DNA of 64,000 nt from an uncultured bacterium (GTDB lineage: Bacteria; Babelota; Babeliae; Babelales; Babelaceae): assembly GCA_963819815.1 (NCBI GenBank), contig CAWFXL010000001.1, positions 224,001 through 288,000 of the forward strand. The letters run 5' to 3'. Below, piece after piece: positions 26,988 through 45,325 of this stretch (position 1 is the stretch's first letter; each line of letters begins with the position of its first letter). The translations under genes were made by a program, and so were the position numbers. Under the pieces are notes generated by a model, which worked only from the letters and a program-made list of their open reading frames with translations, had not been told where the DNA came from and did not search any database.

Positions 26988-27350
26988 CGTAGGTCCTTTC
27001 CTTTCACCACTGTACATTGAAATGAGTACAAGTGGAAGATCTTTTTTTGCAAGATGTTCCGATAGCGATAAAGATACGTTCGTACAAAAATCGTTCTCTC
27101 TTTCTGTTCCCCATGATTTTTTTTCAAGCAGTAGTTGTGCAGTTTTGCTTTGAACGAACTTTTTTATTAACGTACGATCTTCTTGCTTAACGAAGTTGCA
27201 CTGCATGCTTACAAAAAAATGCAAAACTCTTGCAATTCAATTTTTGAATGTGATACCGTGTGTGAAATTGATGTGGAAGCAAACCAGTTTTCATCAAATG
27301 GTACCCAAGAGTGCATTTTGAAAACACATACTAATAAAAGGAGTAGTTGT

Positions 27351-30300
27351 ATGAAGAAACAGCTTTTATTATCGCTCAGTGCGATATGCTATATGATGAG
27401 TAGTTTTGCGCAGGGTCCCTTGCGTATTTCGCAGATTGATGTGAACCCGGCGATTTGTGCTGCAGGCGGCAGCAGTCCAACGAACACACAGATTCTCGTC
27501 GTTGCCGATGGTGGTGTGCCTTTCGCCGACGGTACGTATCACTATTTTCTGAATGGGTCACCTGTGTTTAATACGAGTGGGGTTTTTAGTGTGCCACTCG
27601 GAACAAGCATTAATATCTCAGTTGCGGACTCATTGACGACCCTATCTGGTATTTCTCTTAATAATCTAGGATCAGATTTTACCTTTTATAGTGTGAGTAT
27701 AGACCCGGTAACTAATTGTCTGGTAAATAATGGGGCCGTTACGGTGGTAACCGAAGGTACATCGAGGCCGGTCTTTACTCTCGCATCTCCTGCCACGGGT
27801 CATGTAAACCAGCCTACTGGCGTGTTTACCGGATTACCTGCAGAAGGCGTCACTATTACCTTTTTTGATGAACTAGGTAAATGTACCAACCCAGCACTTG
27901 GTGGTAACCCAAACTCCGTTACCGTGCCGATTGCTGACTTTCCTGTAGAAATAGTTAACCCATCAGCTACAGGGGCACCTCTAGAAGGCGTAGCACCTGT
28001 ATGCAGTGGCACCAGCGACGGATTCTTAGAATTTACGATCATAGGTGGAAATCCTCCCTATTTAGCATGTCTTACTCCAACTATTGCTGAAGAGACTCAG
28101 CCGAGCGATCCTTCAAGAGTATGCACATTAACTGATTGTGGAACTTGTGGAACAGGTTTTATAGGCGGCCTTTCCAGTGGTACCTACACACTTAGTGTCT
28201 CAGATGCAAATGGGTGTGCAGCTACTAACAACCAATTACCGGTTGTTATTCCATCGGGTAAAATAACTATTGATACTACTACAAGTACTACAACAGTAAC
28301 CCCTTGTTTTAATCAAGCTAACGGTACTTTAGAGGTAAACGTAGATACTATTCAAGCTCCTACAACGGTGACAATCACTGGCCCGGTAACAAGGACTTCA
28401 TCTCCTCAGTCCACAAATCCATTTATATTTGCTAACATTCCGGGCGGCACCTATCAAGTTTCGGCAACAGATGGAACCAATTGTGCGATAGCATCATTAA
28501 CAGTTCCTGTTTCAGGTCCTATCTCATTTACCTATTCTACTATTGATGCTGATAAGGTAGTTATTGCAGCTACGAGAGCTAATGTGGGACAGCCTACATG
28601 TTCAAACAAACAGGGGCTCATAATTATTGATAGCGTATTTCCAAACGACGGTTCTGTGAAGTTTTTTTCATTAGATGGTCATCCATTTGAAGAGTTTCAA
28701 GGTACGTCAACCTTTCAGCCTCCACTTGAAATCTGTGCAGATCCAGGATTTCATACGCTTACGTTAGCATTTGATGATTTGGGAGTATGTACTTCTCAAA
28801 CAGTAACCGTATTTGTCGGCACATCGCAGATTACCTTTACTCCAGTGGTGACAAATGCGCCCTGTTTTAATGGTAGTGCGACGACTGACTCTAATTTTGA
28901 TGGTAATGGAACAATTAAAGTCACAGGTATAAGTGGTGGTACTCCTGATCCTATTACTGACCTTTATTCCTTCTCAATAGGAACAGCAGCCGGATTTATA
29001 ACAACCGATAAGACGTTTACCGTCCCTGCGGGTACCTATGAGGTGACCATAAAAGACCATAACGGGTTTTTCTCAGATCCGCAAATTGTTACGGTTGAGC
29101 CGCAAAGTGAAATTATTCTCTCATTTGATGTATTAACCCCGATTAGCTGTCCAGGCAGTGCTACCGGTGTGATAACCGTGACAGCAACTGGCGGTAGTGG
29201 TTCGTATTTCTTTTCTCTAGATGGGACCCAGGGTACCTTTACTACTACTCCAGGAACCACATTTACTTCTCTACCTACAGCGGCTGGAACTTATTCTCTG
29301 GTTGCAAAGGATGCGGTGAATGGTTGTTTCTCAAGAACCCAACAGCTGGTGTTACAAGATGCGGCTCCAATGCTTATTACATATACGACCTCACAATCTG
29401 CGTGTAATAGTACCACTAGTACAGGAGATATAAGTATATCAAATATTTCGGGCGGCTTACCCCCATATACTGCTATAATTGATGGTCTTAGTTTCACTAC
29501 CAAATTTGGTCCCGGGACCACAAACCCATTTCCGACTGTAATTACTTCAAATCTTGCTCCCGGTTTCCATACGCTTACTATCCAAGATAGTAACAATCCA
29601 GCCTGTTCATCTCCAACGATTGAATTTGAGATACAGCCGGTCGTTATTTCGATAATTAATCCACCTAAGACTACCAACCTGACCTGCTTTAATTCTAATG
29701 ACGGAACTATAACGGTGAATACCGAAGATGTAACTGGTGGTACTTTATTCCCGCCAAATAGTGTTACACCATTTCCGCATTACGAGTATTCTATTGGGCT
29801 TGGAGATTTTATAGATACGGGTAATGCAACAGCGCCGGATTCATTTACAGACCTGCCTGCAGGCATCTATCCTGTTACAGTAATGGATGCTAATGGCTGT
29901 ACTTCAGAGCAAGAATTTGTTGTACTTACTCAACCAGCTCCAGTAACCTTCTCATTTGATGTAACTACCCCAATTCTATGTCCAGGGGGTACCGGTACCG
30001 TAACTATCTTTAACCCTCAGGGTGGTAGTGGAACCGGCTTTCAGTTTTCTATAGATGGTGGTACAGTCTTCGCTTCATTCTCGAACGATCCTGTCACTGG
30101 AAAACCGACAGGAAAGGCGACCCTTGCTGCCGGTACGTACACCCTCGTGGTGACGGACAGTAATGCCTGTCTTTCAACCATCCAAGAGCTTGTATTACAA
30201 GATCCTCAACAAATGGGAGTTGCGTTCACAACAACTCCAGCAACCTGCAAAACTGGTAATGCAGGTACTATAAAAATAACAGGGGTCCTTGATGGAAACG

Positions 30301-31430
30301 TGGGCCTTACTGATAAGACAACACCACCGGCGAACTTTACCTTTACTACGGTTGGGGTAAATCAAACCTTTACCGATAAAGGTATTCCGCCAGTTGTGAT
30401 AAATAGTGCTAACGGCGGTCCGGGGACCGTTCCTCCTGGTACCTATACGATTACCGTAACAGATGCTAATGGTTGCGTATCTCCTTCTGTTACCGCAGAG
30501 GTTGAACAATTTGGGCCACCTATTGTTGATTTTGAAGTAGGTGAAGTGACTGCTAACGCTGGATCTGATGGTTCAATAACGATACATGCGGTGACCAACT
30601 TTGGTCCAGTTGTTGCGCCGGGCAAAATTACATTTAATGTTGGAAACGGGGCGACAACAGATACCGATGTACCTGGTACTGTTTCCATGCTTGATGCTGG
30701 CGTCTATGAAGTGACGGTAACAAACACTACAACAGGATGTCAATCTACCTTTGAAGTGGAAGTAACAGAACCAACACGAACAAGGATTGTCGGAACCATT
30801 TCAGTGGCTGCAACGACGGGCAGTAGCAATGGATGCTTGACGGTTCTTACCGAGTCAACTGCACCACTTCTTTACTCACTTATCTCAATTGAGGGAGAAA
30901 TAGACATAGAGGATCAGATTTCACCGCTCTTCTCAGGCTTGAAAAAAGGCTTCTATACCCTTAAGGTAAAACCAAGGTTTACAGGGACTACTCCTCCGCT
31001 TGGAGACACATTGCGTACTCCGCCTGCCATTGAACCGGATGGACAAGGTAATGAGGCTTTCGGTATTGGGGTTGTCGATGAAGCCTCTGCGATTACGGCA
31101 ACAGCGATAGTAACTCCTATCGATTGCAGTACCGGGCTCGGAGGCTCTATAACGGTAGTTGCCTCTGGTGGAGGTGCACCGTCAACGTGCAATTGTGCAG
31201 TAGGCTTATCGTTCTCGCTCAATGGAGGTGAATTCCAGTCATCTCCCGTGTTTAACAATGTTACTACGACAAATAATATAGTTACGATACAGGATGCTGA
31301 CTGTCATACCACCAGCATAGCTGTTACTGTTCCTATAGTACGGGTACCAAATAACAATCCGATATTTAATTTCTTGGCTAAATATTGCAAAAGTACAGGA
31401 AGTTGTGCTGTTGCTACTACTAAGCCATAA
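27351..31430 (+). CDS. Large exported Thr/Gly/Cys-rich beta-repeat protein (SprB-repeat-like adhesin) with KYC tail
   Basis: Signal peptide after AAGGAG; repeated C..GTITV...GG...Y.FS.DG...L.AGTY.V.V.D.NGC units; ends NNPIFNFLAKYCKSTGSC. Confidence 0.85.
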   Translation: MKKQLLLSLSAICYMMSSFAQGPLRISQIDVNPAICAAGGSSPTNTQILVVADGGVPFADGTYHYFLNGSPVFNTSGVFSVPLGTSINISVADSLTTLSGISLNNLGSDFTFYSVSIDPVTNCLVNNGAVTVVTEGTSRPVFTLASPATGHVNQPTGVFTGLPAEGVTITFFDELGKCTNPALGGNPNSVTVPIADFPVEIVNPSATGAPLEGVAPVCSGTSDGFLEFTIIGGNPPYLACLTPTIAEETQPSDPSRVCTLTDCGTCGTGFIGGLSSGTYTLSVSDANGCAATNNQLPVVIPSGKITIDTTTSTTTVTPCFNQANGTLEVNVDTIQAPTTVTITGPVTRTSSPQSTNPFIFANIPGGTYQVSATDGTNCAIASLTVPVSGPISFTYSTIDADKVVIAATRANVGQPTCSNKQGLIIIDSVFPNDGSVKFFSLDGHPFEEFQGTSTFQPPLEICADPGFHTLTLAFDDLGVCTSQTVTVFVGTSQITFTPVVTNAPCFNGSATTDSNFDGNGTIKVTGISGGTPDPITDLYSFSIGTAAGFITTDKTFTVPAGTYEVTIKDHNGFFSDPQIVTVEPQSEIILSFDVLTPISCPGSATGVITVTATGGSGSYFFSLDGTQGTFTTTPGTTFTSLPTAAGTYSLVAKDAVNGCFSRTQQLVLQDAAPMLITYTTSQSACNSTTSTGDISISNISGGLPPYTAIIDGLSFTTKFGPGTTNPFPTVITSNLAPGFHTLTIQDSNNPACSSPTIEFEIQPVVISIINPPKTTNLTCFNSNDGTITVNTEDVTGGTLFPPNSVTPFPHYEYSIGLGDFIDTGNATAPDSFTDLPAGIYPVTVMDANGCTSEQEFVVLTQPAPVTFSFDVTTPILCPGGTGTVTIFNPQGGSGTGFQFSIDGGTVFASFSNDPVTGKPTGKATLAAGTYTLVVTDSNACLSTIQELVLQDPQQMGVAFTTTPATCKTGNAGTIKITGVLDGNVGLTDKTTPPANFTFTTVGVNQTFTDKGIPPVVINSANGGPGTVPPGTYTITVTDANGCVSPSVTAEVEQFGPPIVDFEVGEVTANAGSDGSITIHAVTNFGPVVAPGKITFNVGNGATTDTDVPGTVSMLDAGVYEVTVTNTTTGCQSTFEVEVTEPTRTRIVGTISVAATTGSSNGCLTVLTESTAPLLYSLISIEGEIDIEDQISPLFSGLKKGFYTLKVKPRFTGTTPPLGDTLRTPPAIEPDGQGNEAFGIGVVDEASAITATAIVTPIDCSTGLGGSITVVASGGGAPSTCNCAVGLSFSLNGGEFQSSPVFNNVTTTNNIVTIQDADCHTTSIAVTVPIVRVPNNNPIFNFLAKYCKSTGSCAVATTKP

Positions 31431-31486: not shown

Positions 31487-31544
31487 CTTGATTAGAATAT
31501 ACTAATGGCATATGCTTAGGGCTACGAATAGTGAGGATACCTCT

Positions 31545-32450
31545 ATGGATCTAACATTTAGTAGTAGTCAACATTTGAAGAACTTTCTTGCATCGCTTGA
31601 TATACGGCAGTCTTCTAAGCTTACGTATCAACGCCAATTAAAGGAGTTCTTTGGCTGGTGTAAGAGGAATACTATTCTTGCTTATGACCGTGAAGCACTG
31701 CTTGCCTATAAGCTTCATCTTTCTAAAGATCGCTCATTAGCAGCCTTTACGATATCGGGATACCTAACTGCTGTACGAAGATATTTTGAATGGCTTGAGG
31801 TCTACCACCAGCAACCTAATGTAGCGCGAGGTATAAAAGGTCCCAGTCGAAAAAGGGGCTTTAAAAAAGATTGCCTTACTATTGATCAAGTTAAAAAGAT
31901 GCTTACCTCTATCGATAGATCTTCATTGACTGGTAAACGTGACTTTGCGATGGTGAATCTGATGGTACGAACTGGATTGCGGACTATTGAGATTGCTCGT
32001 GCTCAGAGGGAAGATATTGCTCAGCAGGGTGGCGAGATTGTTCTCTTTATTCATGGAAAAGGTCGTGATTCAAAAGATGAGCTTGTTTTACTCACCCCTT
32101 TTACCTATGAACCGATTATGGAATATCTTACCGAGCGTGGCAGTATAAAACAGGAAGATCCTCTCTTTGCATCTCATAGCACCAAGAACTTTGGAAAAGC
32201 GCTGACCACACGTTCTGTATCACGAATCTGTAAGCATCATTTAAAGTGTAATAACCTCGATGATGCTCGTCTCACCGCTCATAGCTTGCGCCATACTGCA
32301 GTTACGTTGAGTCTCTTAGCAGGAGCAACACCCCAGGAAGCAAAGCTTATGGCGCGCCATGCTGATATAAACACGACACTTATTTATGCGCATAATATTA
32401 ACCGGATTAAGCAAGCACCAGAAAAGAAGATCGACGAAATTCTTGAGTGA
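31545..32450 (+). CDS. Tyrosine recombinase/integrase (Xer-like)
   Basis: RD.AM..LM.RTGLR..E, GKG..K, HSLRHT, ARHADINTT.IY catalytic set R-K-H-R-H-Y. Confidence 0.93.
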   Translation: MDLTFSSSQHLKNFLASLDIRQSSKLTYQRQLKEFFGWCKRNTILAYDREALLAYKLHLSKDRSLAAFTISGYLTAVRRYFEWLEVYHQQPNVARGIKGPSRKRGFKKDCLTIDQVKKMLTSIDRSSLTGKRDFAMVNLMVRTGLRTIEIARAQREDIAQQGGEIVLFIHGKGRDSKDELVLLTPFTYEPIMEYLTERGSIKQEDPLFASHSTKNFGKALTTRSVSRICKHHLKCNNLDDARLTAHSLRHTAVTLSLLAGATPQEAKLMARHADINTTLIYAHNINRIKQAPEKKIDEILE

Positions 32451-35215: not shown

Positions 35216-36280
35216 ATGCAAATTCAGCTTATTCTCTCTTTTTCAGTATTGTGTGCATTGCTGAGTACTATTTCTGAGCTTCGAGCTGAGTTGACGAAAA
35301 GTCCCATCTATACGACGCAACCACGGTGGACTCAGGAGCTTGATCTTCCCTCCATAGAACAAGAATTACAAGAGGGTGATGTGGCATCTATGAAGCCGAT
35401 GTCGATCGTCCTTAGTGAGATGGGCAAAAAAGTAGATTTTGATAATGAGGTATTCTTGGTGGAGCTCAGGTCTGGTCTCAAGGGTGTCTTCAAGTCAGGA
35501 GATGATCGCTTTGCTGAAGTAGCTGCATATAGAGCCGATCAGTATCTTGGACAGCGCTTGGTCCCGCCGACGGTTTTTAGAACATTAGCGGGAAAAGAGG
35601 GCAGTCTTCAACTGTTCATCGAAACCGATATAGATCTTCTTGAAGATCCTTCACCTTTGTCTTGCGTTTCTGAACGTGAGCTGCTCCAGATGAAACTCTT
35701 CTCGTTTGTCTTTGGCCAATGGGATATTAATCTAGGAAACCGTCTTATTCAGAAGACCGAGGGTCGTTATTACCTTGTACTTATAGATAATGCCGGTATG
35801 TATAATCGACTACAGGTACGTTATGGTGAATATCCCTTTGTCCTCCGAGCATGGCGCTTAAGTGACTATCAGGAGGAGAAGCGCGCATTTCCCTTTGATG
35901 AGCCTCAAGAACTTCGTAATGCTTCCTGTGAAGATGCCAAGAAGCTGTTTAGAGATTTTTTTGAGCCTGAGGAGCTTGAACGCTTTTGCAAGAGAAATTG
36001 TCGGAGACTGAGGTATTGTATTTGGAATAATGCACTCTGGATCCAATATTTTGCTGATAATCCTGAATATACACCATCATACGTATCTGAGTATCCTCAA
36101 TACGATTTACAGGTCTATAAAAATCTTACAAGCGAGCACCTCATAGGCTTTTGGAATGAGCCATATGAGAGTTCCCAGCGTATTCATATTGAAAAGCTCA
36201 TAGCGGATACTCTTGAGCGTCGGGACCAACTTCTTGCAGCGCAGGAAATTCACGAAAAAGCCCATCTGATCATTTCTTAG
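35216..36280 (+). CDS. PI3/PI4-kinase-like (atypical kinase) protein, exported
   Basis: GVFK, EVAAY..D..LG..LVPPTV.R, GSLQLF, GQWDINLGN, LIDN; signal peptide. Confidence 0.75.
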   Translation: MQIQLILSFSVLCALLSTISELRAELTKSPIYTTQPRWTQELDLPSIEQELQEGDVASMKPMSIVLSEMGKKVDFDNEVFLVELRSGLKGVFKSGDDRFAEVAAYRADQYLGQRLVPPTVFRTLAGKEGSLQLFIETDIDLLEDPSPLSCVSERELLQMKLFSFVFGQWDINLGNRLIQKTEGRYYLVLIDNAGMYNRLQVRYGEYPFVLRAWRLSDYQEEKRAFPFDEPQELRNASCEDAKKLFRDFFEPEELERFCKRNCRRLRYCIWNNALWIQYFADNPEYTPSYVSEYPQYDLQVYKNLTSEHLIGFWNEPYESSQRIHIEKLIADTLERRDQLLAAQEIHEKAHLIIS

Positions 36281-36400
36281 ACCACTTCCTAGATCTCTTG
36301 CAAGAATTCAATTAGAAAAACTATTGAAAATAGTATTGCTTTTTTATTACAATGAAGGAGATAGAACTATAATATTCCTCTAAACTAAAAGGAGATTTCT

Positions 36401-36799
36401 ATGAACATCAAAAACACCCTAGTGGGTATGTTAATGATTATGTTGAGTACTGCAGCTGTTACACAATGCAGTGAAGGGAAAAAACAAGAGCAACGTGCTG
36501 AAGAAGCTAAAGCCCTGAAGCCAGGTAGAGGCTTAGGTATGGGACCTCTAGGTTTGAGAGCTCGAGCAATGGCTGCTGAAGCTGCCGCCAAAGGTAAAGA
36601 AGTAGAAGAAGAAGCAGTTGAAAAAGGAAAAGTAGCACTGTCAAAAGTAAAACAAGCTCCACCTCTTCCTCCAAAACGTGCAAAAAGAACAGCTGAAGCT
36701 CAAGCAGCTGCTGCAGCAGAAGAACCTGAACATGAAGAATCATGGGGCGAAATGTTAGCTCGTCATGGTGCAAGCGTTAATGAGCCATTTAGGTGCTGA
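36401..36799 (+). CDS. Array gene A1: small exported Ala/Glu/Lys-rich protein with PPLPPKR
   Basis: AAGGAG RBS; MNIKNTL leader; APPLPPKRAKR; ESWGEMLARH. Confidence 0.85.
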   Translation: MNIKNTLVGMLMIMLSTAAVTQCSEGKKQEQRAEEAKALKPGRGLGMGPLGLRARAMAAEAAAKGKEVEEEAVEKGKVALSKVKQAPPLPPKRAKRTAEAQAAAAAEEPEHEESWGEMLARHGASVNEPFRC

Positions 36800-36905
36800 T
36801 TAATCTGACTAACTGGATAGCTAAGTGAAAGTAAAGACTCAATAAGAAGGTCTAGGAATGCTAAAAAATATCCCTATCTTATTGATAACATTAAAGGAGA
36901 ATTCT

Positions 36906-37307
36906 ATGAACATCAAAAATACCCTCGTTGGTATGTTACTCATTATGTTAAGTACTGCAGTTGTTACGCAATGCAGTGAAGGAAAAATGCAAGAGAAAAA
37001 AGCTGAAGAAGCTAAAGCTCTCAAGCCAGGTAGAGGTTTAGGTATGGGACCTCTAGGCTTAAAAGCTAGAGCAATGGCAGCTGAAGCTGCTGCGAAAGAG
37101 GAAGAAGAAGCAGCACCTGAAAAAGGAAAAGTAGCTCCTTCAAAAGTAAAACAAGCTCCACCTCTTCCACCTAAACGTGCAAAAAGAACGGCTGAAGCTC
37201 AAGCGGCTCCTACAGCAGAAGAAGCTGAAGCTGAAGAATCATGGGGCGAAATGATGTCGCGTCATGCTGCAACGTTAGCGAGCCAATTTGGTCATTGGGT
37301 AGATTAA
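36906..37307 (+). CDS. Array gene A2: near-duplicate of A1
   Basis: Same leader, GRGLGMGPLGL, APPLPPKRAKR, ESWGEMMSRH. Confidence 0.85.
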   Translation: MNIKNTLVGMLLIMLSTAVVTQCSEGKMQEKKAEEAKALKPGRGLGMGPLGLKARAMAAEAAAKEEEEAAPEKGKVAPSKVKQAPPLPPKRAKRTAEAQAAPTAEEAEAEESWGEMMSRHAATLASQFGHWVD

Positions 37308-37407
37308 TCTGACCAACTGGACAGATACGTCAAAGTAAAGACTCAATAAGAAGGTCTACGAATGCTAAAAAATATCCCTATCTTATTGATTAATTAAAGG
37401 AGAATGT

Positions 37408-37971
37408 ATGAATATCAAAAATACCCTCATGGGTATGTTACTGATTATGTTGAGCACTGTAGCTCTTACCGAGTGTGGTAAAGGCGGGTGCAAAGGTGGT
37501 GTTTGTGCTCTAAAGCCTAACAAGCAGAAACAAGCCCAAATGATGCAGCGTGAACAAGCAGCAAAAGCCCAAGCACAAGCTCAAGCGCTACAAATGCAGG
37601 CAGCGCGTGCCAAGCAAGCTCAAATAAGGCAGGCAGCGCAAGCTCGTGGTGCTGAAGTTCGCGCAGGTATAAGGGCTAAAGCATTGGCTGCCAAAGAAGC
37701 GATGAAAGGTGCCGCTAAACCTACAGTAATGACTGCTACGCCCAAAGCGTCTGAATTAGCAAAAGCCAAAGGTATGATGGAAGCAAAAGCGGTGACTACC
37801 GAAGAGGCGAAAGCTGCGCTCGCTAGTGAAACTCCACCTCCACTTCCTCCAAAACGTGCAAGAAGAATAGCTGAAGCACCAGCAGCGCAAGAACAACCAG
37901 CTCCGCGTGGAGAAACGTGGGGAGAAATGTTTGCTCGTCATGGTGAAACGTTAATGGGTCATTCTGGGTAA
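37408..37971 (+). CDS. Array gene A3
   Basis: Same leader; CGKGGCKGGVC; Gln/Ala-rich; PPPLPPKRARR; ETWGEMFARH. Confidence 0.85.
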   Translation: MNIKNTLMGMLLIMLSTVALTECGKGGCKGGVCALKPNKQKQAQMMQREQAAKAQAQAQALQMQAARAKQAQIRQAAQARGAEVRAGIRAKALAAKEAMKGAAKPTVMTATPKASELAKAKGMMEAKAVTTEEAKAALASETPPPLPPKRARRIAEAPAAQEQPAPRGETWGEMFARHGETLMGHSG

Positions 37972-38073
37972 GAGTAATCTGACCAAACTGACAATTAAGT
38001 GAAATTAAAGACTCGAGGGTATATGAACTCAAAATACCCTCGTATCTTATTGATCCAGTAAAAGGAGAATGTT

Positions 38074-38574
38074 ATGAACATCAAAAATACCCTCATGGGC
38101 ATGTTGCTGATTATGCTGAGCAGTGCAGCTCTTACCGAATCTAGTCAAGGCAATGCCAGAGGTGCAAGCGCAGCTAGAATCACAGCCACTGCTTTGAGAG
38201 GCGCAACAATACGTGCTCGTACTGGGCAAGTTGCTGCTCCGCAAGAAGCCCAATCAGGGAGTGCCCAAGGTATGAAGGCTACAGCAGTCCCTGCTCAAGC
38301 AAGTGCTTCATCAACCATGGGATCTGAAAAGGCAGCATTAGGCAAGGCCGGAGAACCTATGATGCAAGCAAAAGTAGTAGTGCCAGAAGCTCAACAAGAA
38401 GCGATACCGGTGGCAAAAGAAAAACAGGCTCCACCTCTTCCTCCAAAACGTGCGAGAATGGTACCTGTAGCCCCTGCACCTGTGGTTGAACCACAAGCGG
38501 AACAACCAGCCCCGCGTGAAGACACCTCGGGAAGCTTGTTTGCGCGTCATATGAGTTATTTTTTTGGAGAATAA
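38074..38574 (+). CDS. Array gene A4
   Basis: Same leader; APPLPPKRARM; DTSGSLFARH. Confidence 0.85.
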   Translation: MNIKNTLMGMLLIMLSSAALTESSQGNARGASAARITATALRGATIRARTGQVAAPQEAQSGSAQGMKATAVPAQASASSTMGSEKAALGKAGEPMMQAKVVVPEAQQEAIPVAKEKQAPPLPPKRARMVPVAPAPVVEPQAEQPAPREDTSGSLFARHMSYFFGE

Positions 38575-38627
38575 TCTGAGCAAGCTGACAAATCAGTGAA
38601 AGTAAAACCTCAATAAAGGAGAAAATT

Positions 38628-39119
38628 ATGAACATTAAAAATACCCTAGGTATGTTATTAATTATGTTAAGTACTGTTGCTAGTACCCAGTGTGGTAAAG
38701 GCGGCTGTAAAGGCGGAAGTTGTCCGGCAAAGTCTGGTAAAAGCCAACATGCTCTCATGATGCAGCGTGTACAAGCGGCCAGAGCAATACAAGCTCAAGC
38801 GCAAGCTCGACAAATGCAAGTGGGTGGTAGTACCCAAGCTCAAACAAGGCAAGCAGAACCAACACGTGTAGGGGTACGTGCAGGTATGGGTGGTCGTGTA
38901 ATGCAAGTTCAAGCAAGGCCAGCATCAGCATCGACTTCAAGTTCTCGTTCAACCTATGGATCATTGCAATTAAGACCTGCAGGAACGGCGTCTGAACTAG
39001 GCAGAAGTACAAGTTCTAGTGCTACAACAGGAAGTACTCGAGGATCGTTAACTCAATCGAGAGAATCAACGGCATCTGAAGAGTCTGAATCAAGTGGTGC
39101 AGCTGAAAGCAAGGACTAA
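38628..39119 (+). CDS. Array gene A5
   Basis: Same leader; CGKGGCKGGSC as in A3; Ser-rich tail ending ESKD. Confidence 0.85.
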   Translation: MNIKNTLGMLLIMLSTVASTQCGKGGCKGGSCPAKSGKSQHALMMQRVQAARAIQAQAQARQMQVGGSTQAQTRQAEPTRVGVRAGMGGRVMQVQARPASASTSSSRSTYGSLQLRPAGTASELGRSTSSSATTGSTRGSLTQSRESTASEESESSGAAESKD

Positions 39120-39133
39120 GTTAGGAGTTTTTT

Positions 39134-39487
39134 ATGAATGTAAAACATATCTTAGTAGGTTTGTTACTGATCTTGATGAGCACGGAAGCTATTACGGAAT
39201 GTAATGGTGGTCGTTCAAGAAAAGCTCAACAACAGCAACAATGTACCGGAGAAAGCTGCTCATTAAAAGGTGGCAAGAAAGGGAAAGGTTATCGTGGCCG
39301 TCATATGAGACGCCATGGTAAGCGCCATGGAGGCTGGGGTATGAGAGGTCGTGGTACGCAAGGTCAAGGCATGAAAGTCCAAGCCGTGAAAGCCCAAGGC
39401 ACGAAAGCCAAAGCTACTGAGTCTACTGAGTCAGAAGAAGAAGAGTCTTCTACCGGCAACGAAGAAGCAGTTGAAAGTAAAGATTAA
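39134..39487 (+). CDS. Array gene A6
   Basis: Related leader ending ITEC; basic Arg/His/Gly middle; acidic tail ending ESKD. Confidence 0.8.
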   Translation: MNVKHILVGLLLILMSTEAITECNGGRSRKAQQQQQCTGESCSLKGGKKGKGYRGRHMRRHGKRHGGWGMRGRGTQGQGMKVQAVKAQGTKAKATESTESEEEESSTGNEEAVESKD

Positions 39488-39510
39488 TCATAATACTTAG
39501 GAGAATAACT

Positions 39511-40005
39511 ATGAATTCAAAATTAGCATTCGTAGGCCTCTTAGCACTTATGCTAGGGGCCACGGAACTTATCGATGCACGTGGTGGCGGTGGTGGACGT
39601 GGCGGTGGTGGACGTGGCGGTGGTGGCGGCGGCCGAGGCGGCGGCGGTATGCATGGTGGTGGAATGCGTGGCCATGGTGGTGTTAGCCATATGGGCGGAC
39701 GTCATGTAGGCGGAGGTCGCCATGTTAGCGGCGGACGTCATGTAGGTGGCGGTCGACATGTTGGCGGCGGACGTCATGTAGATGGTGGTCGTCATGTTGG
39801 CGGAGGTCGCCGTGATGGTGGACGTCACTTAGGCGGTCGTGGTATTCGCAGTGGCTCATACTGGGGCCCGTATCTGTTGGGTGGTCTTCTTGTAGGCATA
39901 CCCCTCCTAAACTATGAGCTAGGATCACCTTATGATGGTTGCTACTATGACTTCGATGGAGACTTAATCTGCCAAATGGGCGATGAATGGTACTATGCGT
40001 CATAG
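39511..40005 (+). CDS. Array gene A7: exported Gly/Arg/His-rich repeat protein
   Basis: Leader; RGGGG repeats; GGRHV(G/S/D) repeats; aromatic/acidic Cys-containing tail. Confidence 0.8.
   Translation: MNSKLAFVGLLALMLGATELIDARGGGGGRGGGGRGGGGGGRGGGGMHGGGMRGHGGVSHMGGRHVGGGRHVSGGRHVGGGRHVGGGRHVDGGRHVGGGRRDGGRHLGGRGIRSGSYWGPYLLGGLLVGIPLLNYELGSPYDGCYYDFDGDLICQMGDEWYYAS
39694..39831 (+). repeat. 18-nt coding tandem repeat (GGRHVG x ~7-8)
   Basis: Units such as ggcggacgtcatgta / ggtcgacatgtt with synonymous variation. Confidence 0.85.
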
Positions 40006-40020
40006 AAATGAATGAGACTT

Positions 40021-40051
40021 AAAGATGGAGGCTTCGGTCTCCATCTTTTTT
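40021..40051 (+). terminator. Rho-independent terminator closing A1-A7
   Basis: AAAGATGGAGGC-TTCG-GTCTCCATCTTT followed by T run. Confidence 0.85.
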
Positions 40052-40200
40052 GATGTAGAGCATTTATTTCTTCGTCCTTTTCTACCCATCTTGACCAAAC
40101 AAAAAAAATCTTATTCTATAAAATACTTGATTAATCATATTTGTACTTAATAAACTAAGAGAGATAGAGTATAATTACCAAATAAGTAAGGAGCATTAAT

Positions 40201-40512
40201 ATGAATGCAAAGTATTTACGAGCAGCTCTTTTGCTTGTTGTTTTAGGGATGGCAAGCATTACTGAATGCGGCCGTAGTTGCAGTCGGAGTTCAAGCCGTG
40301 GACATAGACATTCAAGTCATAGCCATGGGCGTAGGTGTTGCCGAGGTGGCGGCTATGGCTGGGGTCCAAGAGTTTATGGAGGCTTTGGGTACTATGATCC
40401 TTATTTTAACGGATACGGCTATGGATACGCCCCTTGGGGATATGGTTATGGGTATGGTCCTTATGCCTATGAGCCCGTTGGCTGCTCATTTGGGTTGAAT
40501 GTCTGTATTTGA
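40201..40512 (+). CDS. Array gene A8: exported Tyr/Gly-rich small protein
   Basis: AAGGAG RBS; leader ending ITEC; GYGYG repeats. Confidence 0.78.
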   Translation: MNAKYLRAALLLVVLGMASITECGRSCSRSSSRGHRHSSHSHGRRCCRGGGYGWGPRVYGGFGYYDPYFNGYGYGYAPWGYGYGYGPYAYEPVGCSFGLNVCI

Positions 40513-42628: not shown

Positions 42629-42915
42629 CGAAAGTCTCCTTAACGTAAATAGGGTGTATAACGTAGGGATACTACTTCGTTTAGAGAATTTTTTCAAATT
42701 GTGTTCATGTTTTTGGCATGGATTATTTCAGTCGAACGGTTGAAGATATATGGTGCTTTCATCGAGCTATTAGATGGGAAGTATTTTGCAAGGAGGGGAC
42801 TTTGCTGTAAAATGCGTGAAACTATTGTGTCCATAAAGAGAATTTTGATACTCTTCCGATGGATGCGAAAATGGCGTATCAGCTTATACATTTTATACAT
42901 TTAAAAGGAAGACGA

Positions 42916-43623
42916 ATGAAGAAACACTTCGTAATATTACTTATCATCTGGTCGGCTTCTATTATTGCACAGGTTGGTCCTCAACCATTGTATATCTCAA
43001 ATATTACGCTTATCCCTTCATGTGGGAATACTGCAACGATATCGGTGACTGCTGCTGGTGGTCAACCAACGCTGGATGGTTTCTATACTTACCAGATAGG
43101 TTCTCCGATAAATGAAATTCGGGTTGCAAAAACGGTCACCTTTACTGCTACCAGTGGCTCAATACCCATTTTGCTTATAAGCGATTCTTCATCGAACGCT
43201 CTTAATATAGATCAAGTAGCTTCTTTTACGCCATCTCAAACCACCTCAGTAAGCATGGATGTCAGTACATTACCGCTTGGTAATGGAAAAGGATGTATCC
43301 TTTTAAGTGTTACTAATCCTGGAGGATTAGCAACCAATCTGGTTACTTTTGGTTTGCGGGCTTTTACTCCTACTGATTTGGAGACTCCTTCCGATATCAA
43401 GCAGGTGAAAGAAGCCCCTTTCACGGCTACATTTCTTTCTTTGCCAAGCGCTTTACTTAATGCTTCTGTTGTTAATATCGATGATGGTTGTGCTGAAGGC
43501 TCCACTTTCAATTTCATATTTCCCTTTCCTCAGGGATTGGGAAATGCTCTGAAAGCGTATATATTTAACAAATATTGTAGCTGCCCTCTCAGTAGTTCTG
43601 CGATATCTGTTCCTATACCTTAG
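42916..43623 (+). CDS. Exported beta-rich protein with KYC tail (short paralog of the 27351 protein)
   Basis: AQVGPQPLYISNI...ISVTAAGGQP..DG.Y.Y; ends GNALKAYIFNKYCSCP. Confidence 0.85.
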   Translation: MKKHFVILLIIWSASIIAQVGPQPLYISNITLIPSCGNTATISVTAAGGQPTLDGFYTYQIGSPINEIRVAKTVTFTATSGSIPILLISDSSSNALNIDQVASFTPSQTTSVSMDVSTLPLGNGKGCILLSVTNPGGLATNLVTFGLRAFTPTDLETPSDIKQVKEAPFTATFLSLPSALLNASVVNIDDGCAEGSTFNFIFPFPQGLGNALKAYIFNKYCSCPLSSSAISVPIP

Positions 43624-44584: not shown

Positions 44585-45325
44585 ATGAAGAAGCTTATCA
44601 TACTACTCGCGATTTATTCAGCATCGATGATTGCTCAGGTTGGTCCTCAGCCATTATATTTCTCAAATATTACCATTACTCCTACACCAGGATCATGCGA
44701 TGTAGCTGTAGGTAAAGCAACTGCAACTATATCGGTGACTGCCGCGGGTGGGCAGCCAGCAGCAGATGGTTCATATATCTATATAGTGAATGGTAATACC
44801 AATCAGGCCATAGTTGCAAAGACTGCTACATTCACCGCTCTTGAAAACGAAGCTGTTAGCGTGATAGTAGTCGATGCAGGGCAGAATACTTTATTCGTAT
44901 TTGGAGGCACACCAGTAGTTATGTTTAAACGAAGTGCGACAACATCGGTGAGCATGGATGTGGTTTCGTTACCTCTTGGTAATAATCCTGGTTGTTTCAG
45001 GTTAACCGTTATTAATCCTGCTGGTAAGGCAACCGGTACGGTAAACTTTACAGCCCAATCCGTAACTCAGAATGAATCATTAACTGAAACTATCCTTGAG
45101 CAAACACTCCAGGCACCGCCCTTTACTGTCACATTTCCTTCTTTGCCGGCTGCATTTATTATTGCCGAGGTTGCGGTTGCAGATGATTGCGGATCGGGCG
45201 GTTCATCCACCTTCAGCTTTAACTTTCCTTTTCCACAAGGATTTGGAAATGCTTTGAATGCATATATATTTAACAAATATTGTAGCTGCCCTCTGAGCAG
45301 TACAGCAATAGTGATACACCCATAA
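44585..45325 (+). CDS. Exported beta-rich protein with KYC tail, paralog of 42916..43623
   Basis: Same N-terminus and upstream AAAGGAAGACGA-ATG; ends GNALNAYIFNKYCSCP. Confidence 0.85.
   Translation: MKKLIILLAIYSASMIAQVGPQPLYFSNITITPTPGSCDVAVGKATATISVTAAGGQPAADGSYIYIVNGNTNQAIVAKTATFTALENEAVSVIVVDAGQNTLFVFGGTPVVMFKRSATTSVSMDVVSLPLGNNPGCFRLTVINPAGKATGTVNFTAQSVTQNESLTETILEQTLQAPPFTVTFPSLPAAFIIAEVAVADDCGSGGSSTFSFNFPFPQGFGNALNAYIFNKYCSCPLSSTAIVIHP

Follow-up and report, generated by a model that had tools for sequence, protein, structure and literature searches.

In the window analysed here, 64,000 nt of an uncultured member of Dependentiae (Babelota; GCA_963819815.1, contig CAWFXL010000001.1, positions 224,001 to 288,000), eight small genes, A1 to A8, follow each other on the forward strand at positions 36401..40512 as intact open reading frames (ORFs) with related Sec-type leaders. 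The family has not been described before but is of a known kind, namely the lineage-specific tandem exported disordered proteins of an intracellular bacterium. To judge from sequence comparison, A7 and A8 are its old part, RGG- and Gly/Tyr-rich exported proteins adjoining murD genus-wide, and A1-A6 appear to be a recent expansion reusing a leader and promoter of the A7/A8 type. We put at about 40% the probability that the products are exported disordered adaptors acting on a protist host. The source genome (G000) is 1.64 Mb long and 88% complete; a sister species of the same genus (G001, 89% nucleotide identity over 14 kb) carries the identical eight genes in identical order. The A1-A6 expansion was found in three lineages only, the third being represented by just four proteins (P0005, P0007-P0009), each on a 3826-bp contig. 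The array and its signals are as follows.

36324..36373, + strand: promoter-like site of the A1-A7 unit, TTGAAA-18-TACAAT, with a second TATAAT at 36368-36373; nearly identical in G001
36401..36799, + strand: A1, 132 aa; the leader is followed by an Ala/Glu/Lys body, PPLPPK (starting at 36659) and the WGEM..RH helix
36839..36885, + strand: intergenic stem-loop, repeated at ~37343-37389 and ~38008-38047 (z -2.4, -3.2 and -5.0); T-run absent
36906..37307, + strand: A2, 133 aa; close A1 paralogue, 82% identical, PPLPPK from 37158
37408..37971, + strand: A3, 187 aa; CxxGxC and a long Gln/Ala helix (residues 39-102), joined by a disordered linker to PPLPPK (from 37837) and the tail helix (171-184)
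38074..38574, + strand: A4, 166 aa; intact PPLPPK (starting at 38431), with decay of the tail motif in G000 only
38628..39119, + strand: A5, 163 aa; N-terminal part like that of A3, then a basic body rich in Ser/Thr and an acidic end (ESKD)
39134..39487, + strand: A6, 117 aa; a basic block of Gly/Arg/Lys/His is followed by an acidic end (ESKD)
39511..40005, + strand: A7, 164 aa; RGG/GGRHV repeats, C-terminal CYYD-x-x-G-x-x-x-C segment; the ancestral genus-wide member
40021..40054, + strand: intrinsic terminator-like hairpin ending A1-A7, with a 12-bp stem (40021-40048, identical in G001) and a T-run
40127..40175, + strand: A8 promoter-like site, TTGATT-18-TAAACT, then TATAAT
40201..40512, + strand: A8, 103 aa; one Ser/His/Arg and one Gly/Tyr-rich block, with a Cys pair at the C-terminal end; a derived RGG-type paralogue

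The leader repeats at the DNA level (six 70-nt copies sharing 69-89% identity with the reference one), and the sequence-only reading of this stretch, which had reported an eight-gene array with related leaders, was right on this point. A hidden Markov model (HMM) built from the eight leaders recovers, by construction, those eight at E<=3e-12; the search of G000 with it, proposed by the same reading, gave no credible ninth member in 16,105 stop-to-stop frames, the next match (E 0.0075) lying mid-frame. All eight pass a heuristic for Sec export and signal peptidase I (Lys at position 4, 11-residue hydropathy of 2.2-3.0, T-x-C/S or I-x-A), with cleavage expected after T-E/Q-C/S or I-D-A. Signal peptidase I rather than lipidation by way of signal peptidase II is favoured because the Cys exchanges with Ser or Ala among homologues (A4, G001 A6, P0005 and P0009); Gln or Glu precedes it. 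The first Cys of ‘CGKGG’, earlier counted in a mature module, is most likely the final signal-peptide residue. It should be added that 439 of the 1420 crudely called G000 genes passed the leader heuristic, and export alone is therefore unremarkable for the array.

Nothing above cut-off was returned for A1-A8 by Pfam (16 proteins, plus 12 A7-type proteins) or NCBIfam (14 proteins), in keeping with the former statement that the family could not be named. ESM Atlas gave no usable match for A3, and a literature search (mostly open-access texts, supplements excluded) produced no paper describing this array. A1-A6 are rich in Ala, Lys, Gln and Glu, and A3 and A5 contain the motif CKGGxC. In the AlphaFold model of A3 (pTM 0.26), residues 39-102 make a long helix and residues 171-184 a short C-terminal one, with a disordered linker between them.

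A1-A7 would form one transcript, because a promoter-like site stands before A1, a terminator after A7, and A8 has a promoter-like site of its own. The hairpin after A7 (z -3.7, equal stability in 1 of 200 shuffles) bears out the terminator proposed from the letters alone. The A8 and A1 promoter-like sites have GAGATAGA-N1-2-TATAAT in common, with two exact matches among the upstream regions of the 1420 called genes. A special promoter class or regulon was considered and dropped, since 18-bp spacers are widespread in G000 (136, versus 163 with 17 bp, in 1006 upstream regions). An AGGAG Shine-Dalgarno (SD) sequence precedes all eight array genes versus 14% of the crudely called ones. For A2 the ORF list uses an upstream ATG at 36858; leader and SD point to 36906. 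A8 overlaps the murD stop by 27 nt. The spacer stem-loops may have a role in mRNA stability or processing; in the spacers before A2-A4 (36858-36905, 37360-37407 and 38020-38073) they contain what looks like a degenerate version of the opening leader codons. An identical copy of the A6 protein exists on a separate 2124-bp contig (P0012), and a paralogue of A7 is located at G000:C1:408127-408846.

The most sharply conserved part of A1-A4 lies near their C-terminus. In all 12 A1-A4-type proteins of the three lineages the only invariant elements outside the leader are G26, PPLPPK and RH, and the tail residues E, W, E and M are present in 11 of the 12. The chance of the motif per shuffled protein is 0.001-0.006; across eight DNA copies, six of eight motif codons vary synonymously and no residue changes. 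PxLPxK, given as the ligand consensus of the CrkII N-SH3 domain in the available passages of PMC10279719, is met in only three other proteins of ~1412 called in G000, and PPLPPK of A1-A4 fits this Crk-type pattern. The tail is predicted to be helical (A3 model) and is moderately amphipathic, with a hydrophobic moment of 0.28-0.49. The modules were as previously described in general, except that PPLPPKR, called degenerate in A4, is intact there and only WGEM has decayed (WGEM is intact in G001 A4). The basic site after PPLPPK varies (KRAK, KRAT, KPAR, KRPR); nuclear localisation or furin cleavage at KRAK/KRAR was rejected, as the pattern fails in G001 A1, P0007 and P0008 while PPLPPK persists.

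As adaptors, the proteins might work in the following way. A1-A7 would be co-transcribed as Sec-exported, largely disordered proteins of an intracellular protist parasite, freed of their leader by signal peptidase I, and could leave the periplasm through a type II-like secretin machinery or in membrane vesicles. Inside the host, A1-A4 would be two-handed: PPLPPK would grip the SH3 domain of a host protein, and the amphipathic helix at the C-terminus would bind membrane or a second host protein. The differing bodies would set spacing, charge or location. The older pair A7/A8 beside murD would have given promoter and leader, tandem duplication in one small clade would have yielded A1-A6, and the tail module would be held by purifying selection and now and then swapped between paralogues.

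The genomic background is compatible with such a lifestyle. G000 has three ATP/ADP translocase genes, three secretins in one cluster with a PilM-like gene beside them, and GspE-type and GspF-type genes; in this 88% complete genome there was no FHIPEP family match (FlhA/SctV) and no VirB4-type match. According to the parts of the literature at hand, members of the phylum are parasites of protists that have a type II-like system, a dense periplasm and vesicles and encode many ORFans with signal peptides (PMC4378268, PMC4776705, PMC6561590). In Babela, type II was the sole secretion system detected and signal peptides are present on 79 of the 126 ankyrin proteins (PMC4378268, in part), and for Chromulinavorax 44% signal peptides and apparent outer-membrane vesicles are reported (PMC6561590, in part). 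PMC12172432 treats hosts, and ‘secret’, ‘signal peptide’ and ‘effector’ were not found in its available passages. The array resembles the signal-peptide secretome of Babela massiliensis and Chromulinavorax destructans, as far as excerpts of PMC4378268 and PMC6561590 describe it, in its Sec leaders and in belonging to lineage-specific expanded ORFans, thought to be host-acting and to use type II-like secretion; unlike the folded repeats and enzymes named there (ankyrin, WD40, peptidases), the array proteins are disordered and motif-based.

The closest likeness in architecture is with CPn0678/CPn0677 (SemC/SemD), entry effectors of Chlamydia pneumoniae, likewise species-restricted tandem paralogues of an intracellular bacterium that combine a proline-rich region with an amphipathic helix (PMC7007526, consulted in part), features which the array has by sequence pattern and prediction. 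SemC/SemD, however, leave by type III secretion, their membrane helix is N-terminal and their binding of SNX9 has been shown, whereas the array proteins have a Sec-type leader and a C-terminal helix. Homology to SemC/SemD was not detected, the five matches of the A1-A4 module profile among 1.84 billion representatives all falling within the array family, and a PDB sequence search with the module (E<=10) gave two chance matches only.

Several observations weigh against the adaptor reading. The motif is short and every copy derives from one ancestor; gene conversion could also keep it uniform, and A1, A4 and G001 A1 have identical codons over PPLPPKR. PxxPx[KR] occurs also in linkers of the secretins of G000 itself. 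With one protein per family, the secretome shows both motif orientations equally and mildly enriched (~32 versus 22 shuffled), and a secretome-wide enrichment of SH3 motifs (58 versus 35 shuffled) was consequently rejected as support, its orientation specificity being gone at that level. Half of the array including its ancestral part, A5-A8, is without the PPLPPK-helix module, and the WGEM part is lost from G000 A4. Type II systems, moreover, are generally held to export folded proteins, and the array proteins are not folded.

The range of the family separates its two parts. A profile of all eight genes, searched against 41 relatives and the own genome, matched three: G000, G001 and, by one weak A7-type start, G009. 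The A1-A4 module was present in 2 of 261 genomes of the phylum, in one locus among 83 candidate JGI metagenome stretches and in 1 of 45 candidate stretches in GTDB contigs, both of the latter being the G001 contig. By comparison, of the 9 murD loci fetched, 7 have an RGG/Gly-rich exported ORF within ~1 kb on the downstream side; none was observed beside murD in G006 and G011, and G007 yielded no murD match. The A7-type C-terminal Cys segment occurs in 7 of 261 genomes, all in the genus of the array; the profile was built from those same positives, which are thus partly circular, and absence elsewhere is the informative part. For its range beyond the phylum there is the weak evidence of one search, which gave two matches, both family members. 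A7 and A8, formerly taken for mosaics of the array, are ancestral genus-wide members and not late mosaics.

As regards the origin of A1-A6, the A8 leader is the closest to theirs, scoring 42-58 against A1-A4 and A6 and 31 against A5, with the best of 546 unrelated leaders at 28-33. The upstream region of A1 aligns with that of the RGG-type gene beside murD in another genome (G003) at a score of 75, above any of 1417 own upstream regions, and the homologue P0016 is intermediate between A7 and A8. Birth of the exported paralogues by tandem duplication, as already claimed, is upheld; it was probably an A8-like promoter-plus-leader that duplicated in front of A7. The further proposal that the array records effector birth, in which an older, structural-looking RGG protein lent its promoter and signal peptide as an export cassette and new disordered bodies behind it evolved a swappable SH3-ligand/amphipathic-helix module, we regard as rather doubtful. 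Like the sulfur globule proteins SgpA/B and the GRP family, A7 and A8 combine a signal peptide with a Gly/Tyr/Arg-rich low-complexity chain; unlike them, they have a conserved C-terminal Cys pair and are confined by profile to one genus. Pfam gave no match to sulfur globule proteins, and GRP appeared only at E 0.054, below cut-off, in 2 of 12 A7-type members.

Other small exported genes were also observed near murD in relatives. Two unrelated low-complexity ones lie immediately upstream of the RGG gene of G002 (L047:9038-10732), which suggests independent accretion at the same site, and small Cys-rich proteins with the motif C-P-N/D-G/K-x-E/N-Y/F occur near it in G005 (L045:9038-9600) and G004 (L046:3710-3940). 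A tyrosine recombinase at window 31512-32450 (dN/dS 0.02) occurs close to ftsW/murD in most of the relatives inspected and resembles a fixed chromosomal gene of XerC type more than a mobile element.

The array had also been called diversifying, and this part of the claim did not stand. Between G000 and G001, the one genome pair compared for both dN/dS (Nei-Gojobori type) and gene order, dN/dS of A1-A8 was 0.44, 0.28, 0.19, 0.68, 0.23, 0.25, 0.29 and 0.13, below 1 at p<0.01 in all genes except A4 (p=0.06), with flanking controls at 0.01-0.29. On this comparison the genes appear to be real and under purifying selection, constrained rather than a diversifying or antigenic-variation cassette, because G001 has the same genes in the same order and dN/dS is below 1; neutral evolution, named beforehand as a refuting outcome, is likewise at odds with the values of 0.13-0.44, A4 being the least decided.

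Module swapping, by contrast, was retained for the C-terminal tail, whose occasional exchange between paralogues is supported by sequence comparison. P0009 combines a body of A3 type (54-57% to A3) with a tail 90% identical to that of G001 A1, and P0007 a body of A1/A2 type (74-79%) with a tail closer to A3 (74%). In three quartets including the third lineage, body sites (14-17) favoured one grouping and tail sites (3-4) an opposite one (p 3e-4 to 3e-3), but a fourth showed no conflict; the quartets were picked after seeing the identity table, are not independent, and the tails are short. The final ~10 codons of A1 are out of frame relative to the family tail. This aberrant end may be an assembly error, because at G000:C1:696300-700500 both EF-G and EF-Tu are broken up across several frames, so that the assembly carries indel errors.

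An effector role of the array is plausible, and a structural one nearly as likely. It is quite possible that the proteins stay periplasmic or on the surface and serve the infectious particle as a structural matrix: A7/A8 (basic, RGG/Tyr-rich), A5/A6 (block-charged) and A3 (helical) would condense among themselves and with anionic polymers of the envelope, disulfides would pin them, and PPLPPK and the tail helix would be assembly or processing signals. Such a role suits the genus-wide A7/A8-type genes, fixed beside murD and conserved in their Cys pair, the basic character of mature A3-A8 (pI 9.2-11.1), the 2-5 Cys of A3 and A5-A8, and the AGGAG sequence before all eight genes. It is also favoured by a separate Cys-rich exported protein kept throughout the genus and by the electron-dense periplasm of free Chromulinavorax particles, although the authors, in the passages available from PMC6561590, ascribe the latter to peptidoglycan. 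A core structural function, however, is ill-suited to A1-A6, limited as they are to three lineages; the exact SH3-ligand consensus as the invariant element is left unexplained; and codon usage, which proved uninformative as an expression proxy, carries no high-expression signature (ranks 86-893 of 1420). The two explanations may divide the array, A1-A4 against A5-A8. Less likely are stress-protective periplasmic hydrophilins or chaperones buffering the envelope in an acidic food vacuole or outside the host. Like Asr of Escherichia coli and the LEA-type hydrophilins, the array proteins are small, basic, exported, disordered and rich in Ala/Lys/Gln. When 245 small proteins with leaders are ordered from the lowest hydrophobic content upward, A6, A5, A3, A2, A1 and A4 take places 1, 2, 3, 5, 7 and 9, and A3 has its long helix. 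The array differs from those hydrophilins in its invariant linear motifs and paralogous arrangement, no Pfam or NCBIfam match to such families was found, and compositional chaperones would need no invariant PPLPPK or WGEM..RH.

Directly upstream of the array lies a neighbouring gene from which a further explanation arises.

35216..36280, + strand: exported atypical kinase (PI4KII/Fam20/CtkA fold)

This gene was formerly set down as a kinase-like exported gene, and its kinase character holds: the best Foldseek matches were PI4KII, Fam20C/Fam20A and CtkA (E 4e-6 to 3e-5, TM ~0.4; 10-15% identity), and the catalytic Lys, Glu, Asp/Asn and DN are kept in 11 of 11 aligned homologues. Were it to phosphorylate Ser-rich array products in the manner of Fam20/CotH-like kinases, the two S-x-E sites each of A5 and A6 would be candidate targets; they are absent from A1-A4, A7 and A8, A1 has its own promoter-like site, and in G001 the kinase is frameshifted and the array intact. 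Homologues occur in 12 of 41 genomes, and the eight loci inspected (1.5-kb flanks) showed other gene contexts without such an array. We therefore set the kinase-substrate cassette aside as improbable, conserved linkage not having been found; the kinase is probably a neighbour and not part of the array unit. More improbable still are precursors of processed peptides, RiPP-/bufferin-like or protease-released. Constant leader, variable body, CKGGxC in A3/A5 and basic sites after PPLPPK would fit them, but the leader is of plain Sec type, the basic site varies, the flanking genes are murD, an ATPase and the kinase, and the bufferin/captophorin variant was rejected because the MNIO/DUF692 enzyme (PF05114) had no match in G000 (88% complete), with a positive control in Caulobacter.

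If the effector-birth proposal were true, it would give a motif-level handle on how a Dependentiae bacterium engages host SH3 machinery (actin or endocytosis) without type III or IV secretion. The array supplies small, easily expressed candidates with one sharply defined, peptide-testable motif, and it allows the rise of new exported proteins from a leader-plus-promoter cassette to be traced; if the proteins were particle components instead, A7 and A8 would be markers for the infectious form of the genus. The reach is limited, as A1-A6 come from three lineages, for which we know of no culture. Dependentiae are widespread protist parasites with large predicted secretomes, mostly ORFans, and their host targets are not named in the portions of the literature examined.

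A few other exported proteins of G000 deserve mention. A Cys-rich protein of 145 aa (G000:C1:836637-837074; L073:638-1075), starting with RFGRNGGGCC and 99% identical in G001, was detected in 9 of 9 other genus members, in 12 of 40 family members and, among 261 genomes, in none outside the family; it is a lead toward a disulfide-linked particle envelope. On the minus strand at G000:C1:890247-890966, an exported protein of 239 aa with CxxGxC motifs, a basic Lys/Pro body and an acidic tail is a possible dispersed relative of the array: its alignments with A3, A5 and A6 beat 500 of 500 shuffles each, block composition being uncontrolled. Tandem exported families are common in G000; six larger paralogues, for instance, stand in tandem with repeated promoter-like sites at G000:C1:982391-991301. 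Finally, an exported SprB-like repeat protein of 1415 aa (window 27183-31430) and two shorter exported proteins related in appearance to it (42859-43623 and 44585-45325) flank the array.

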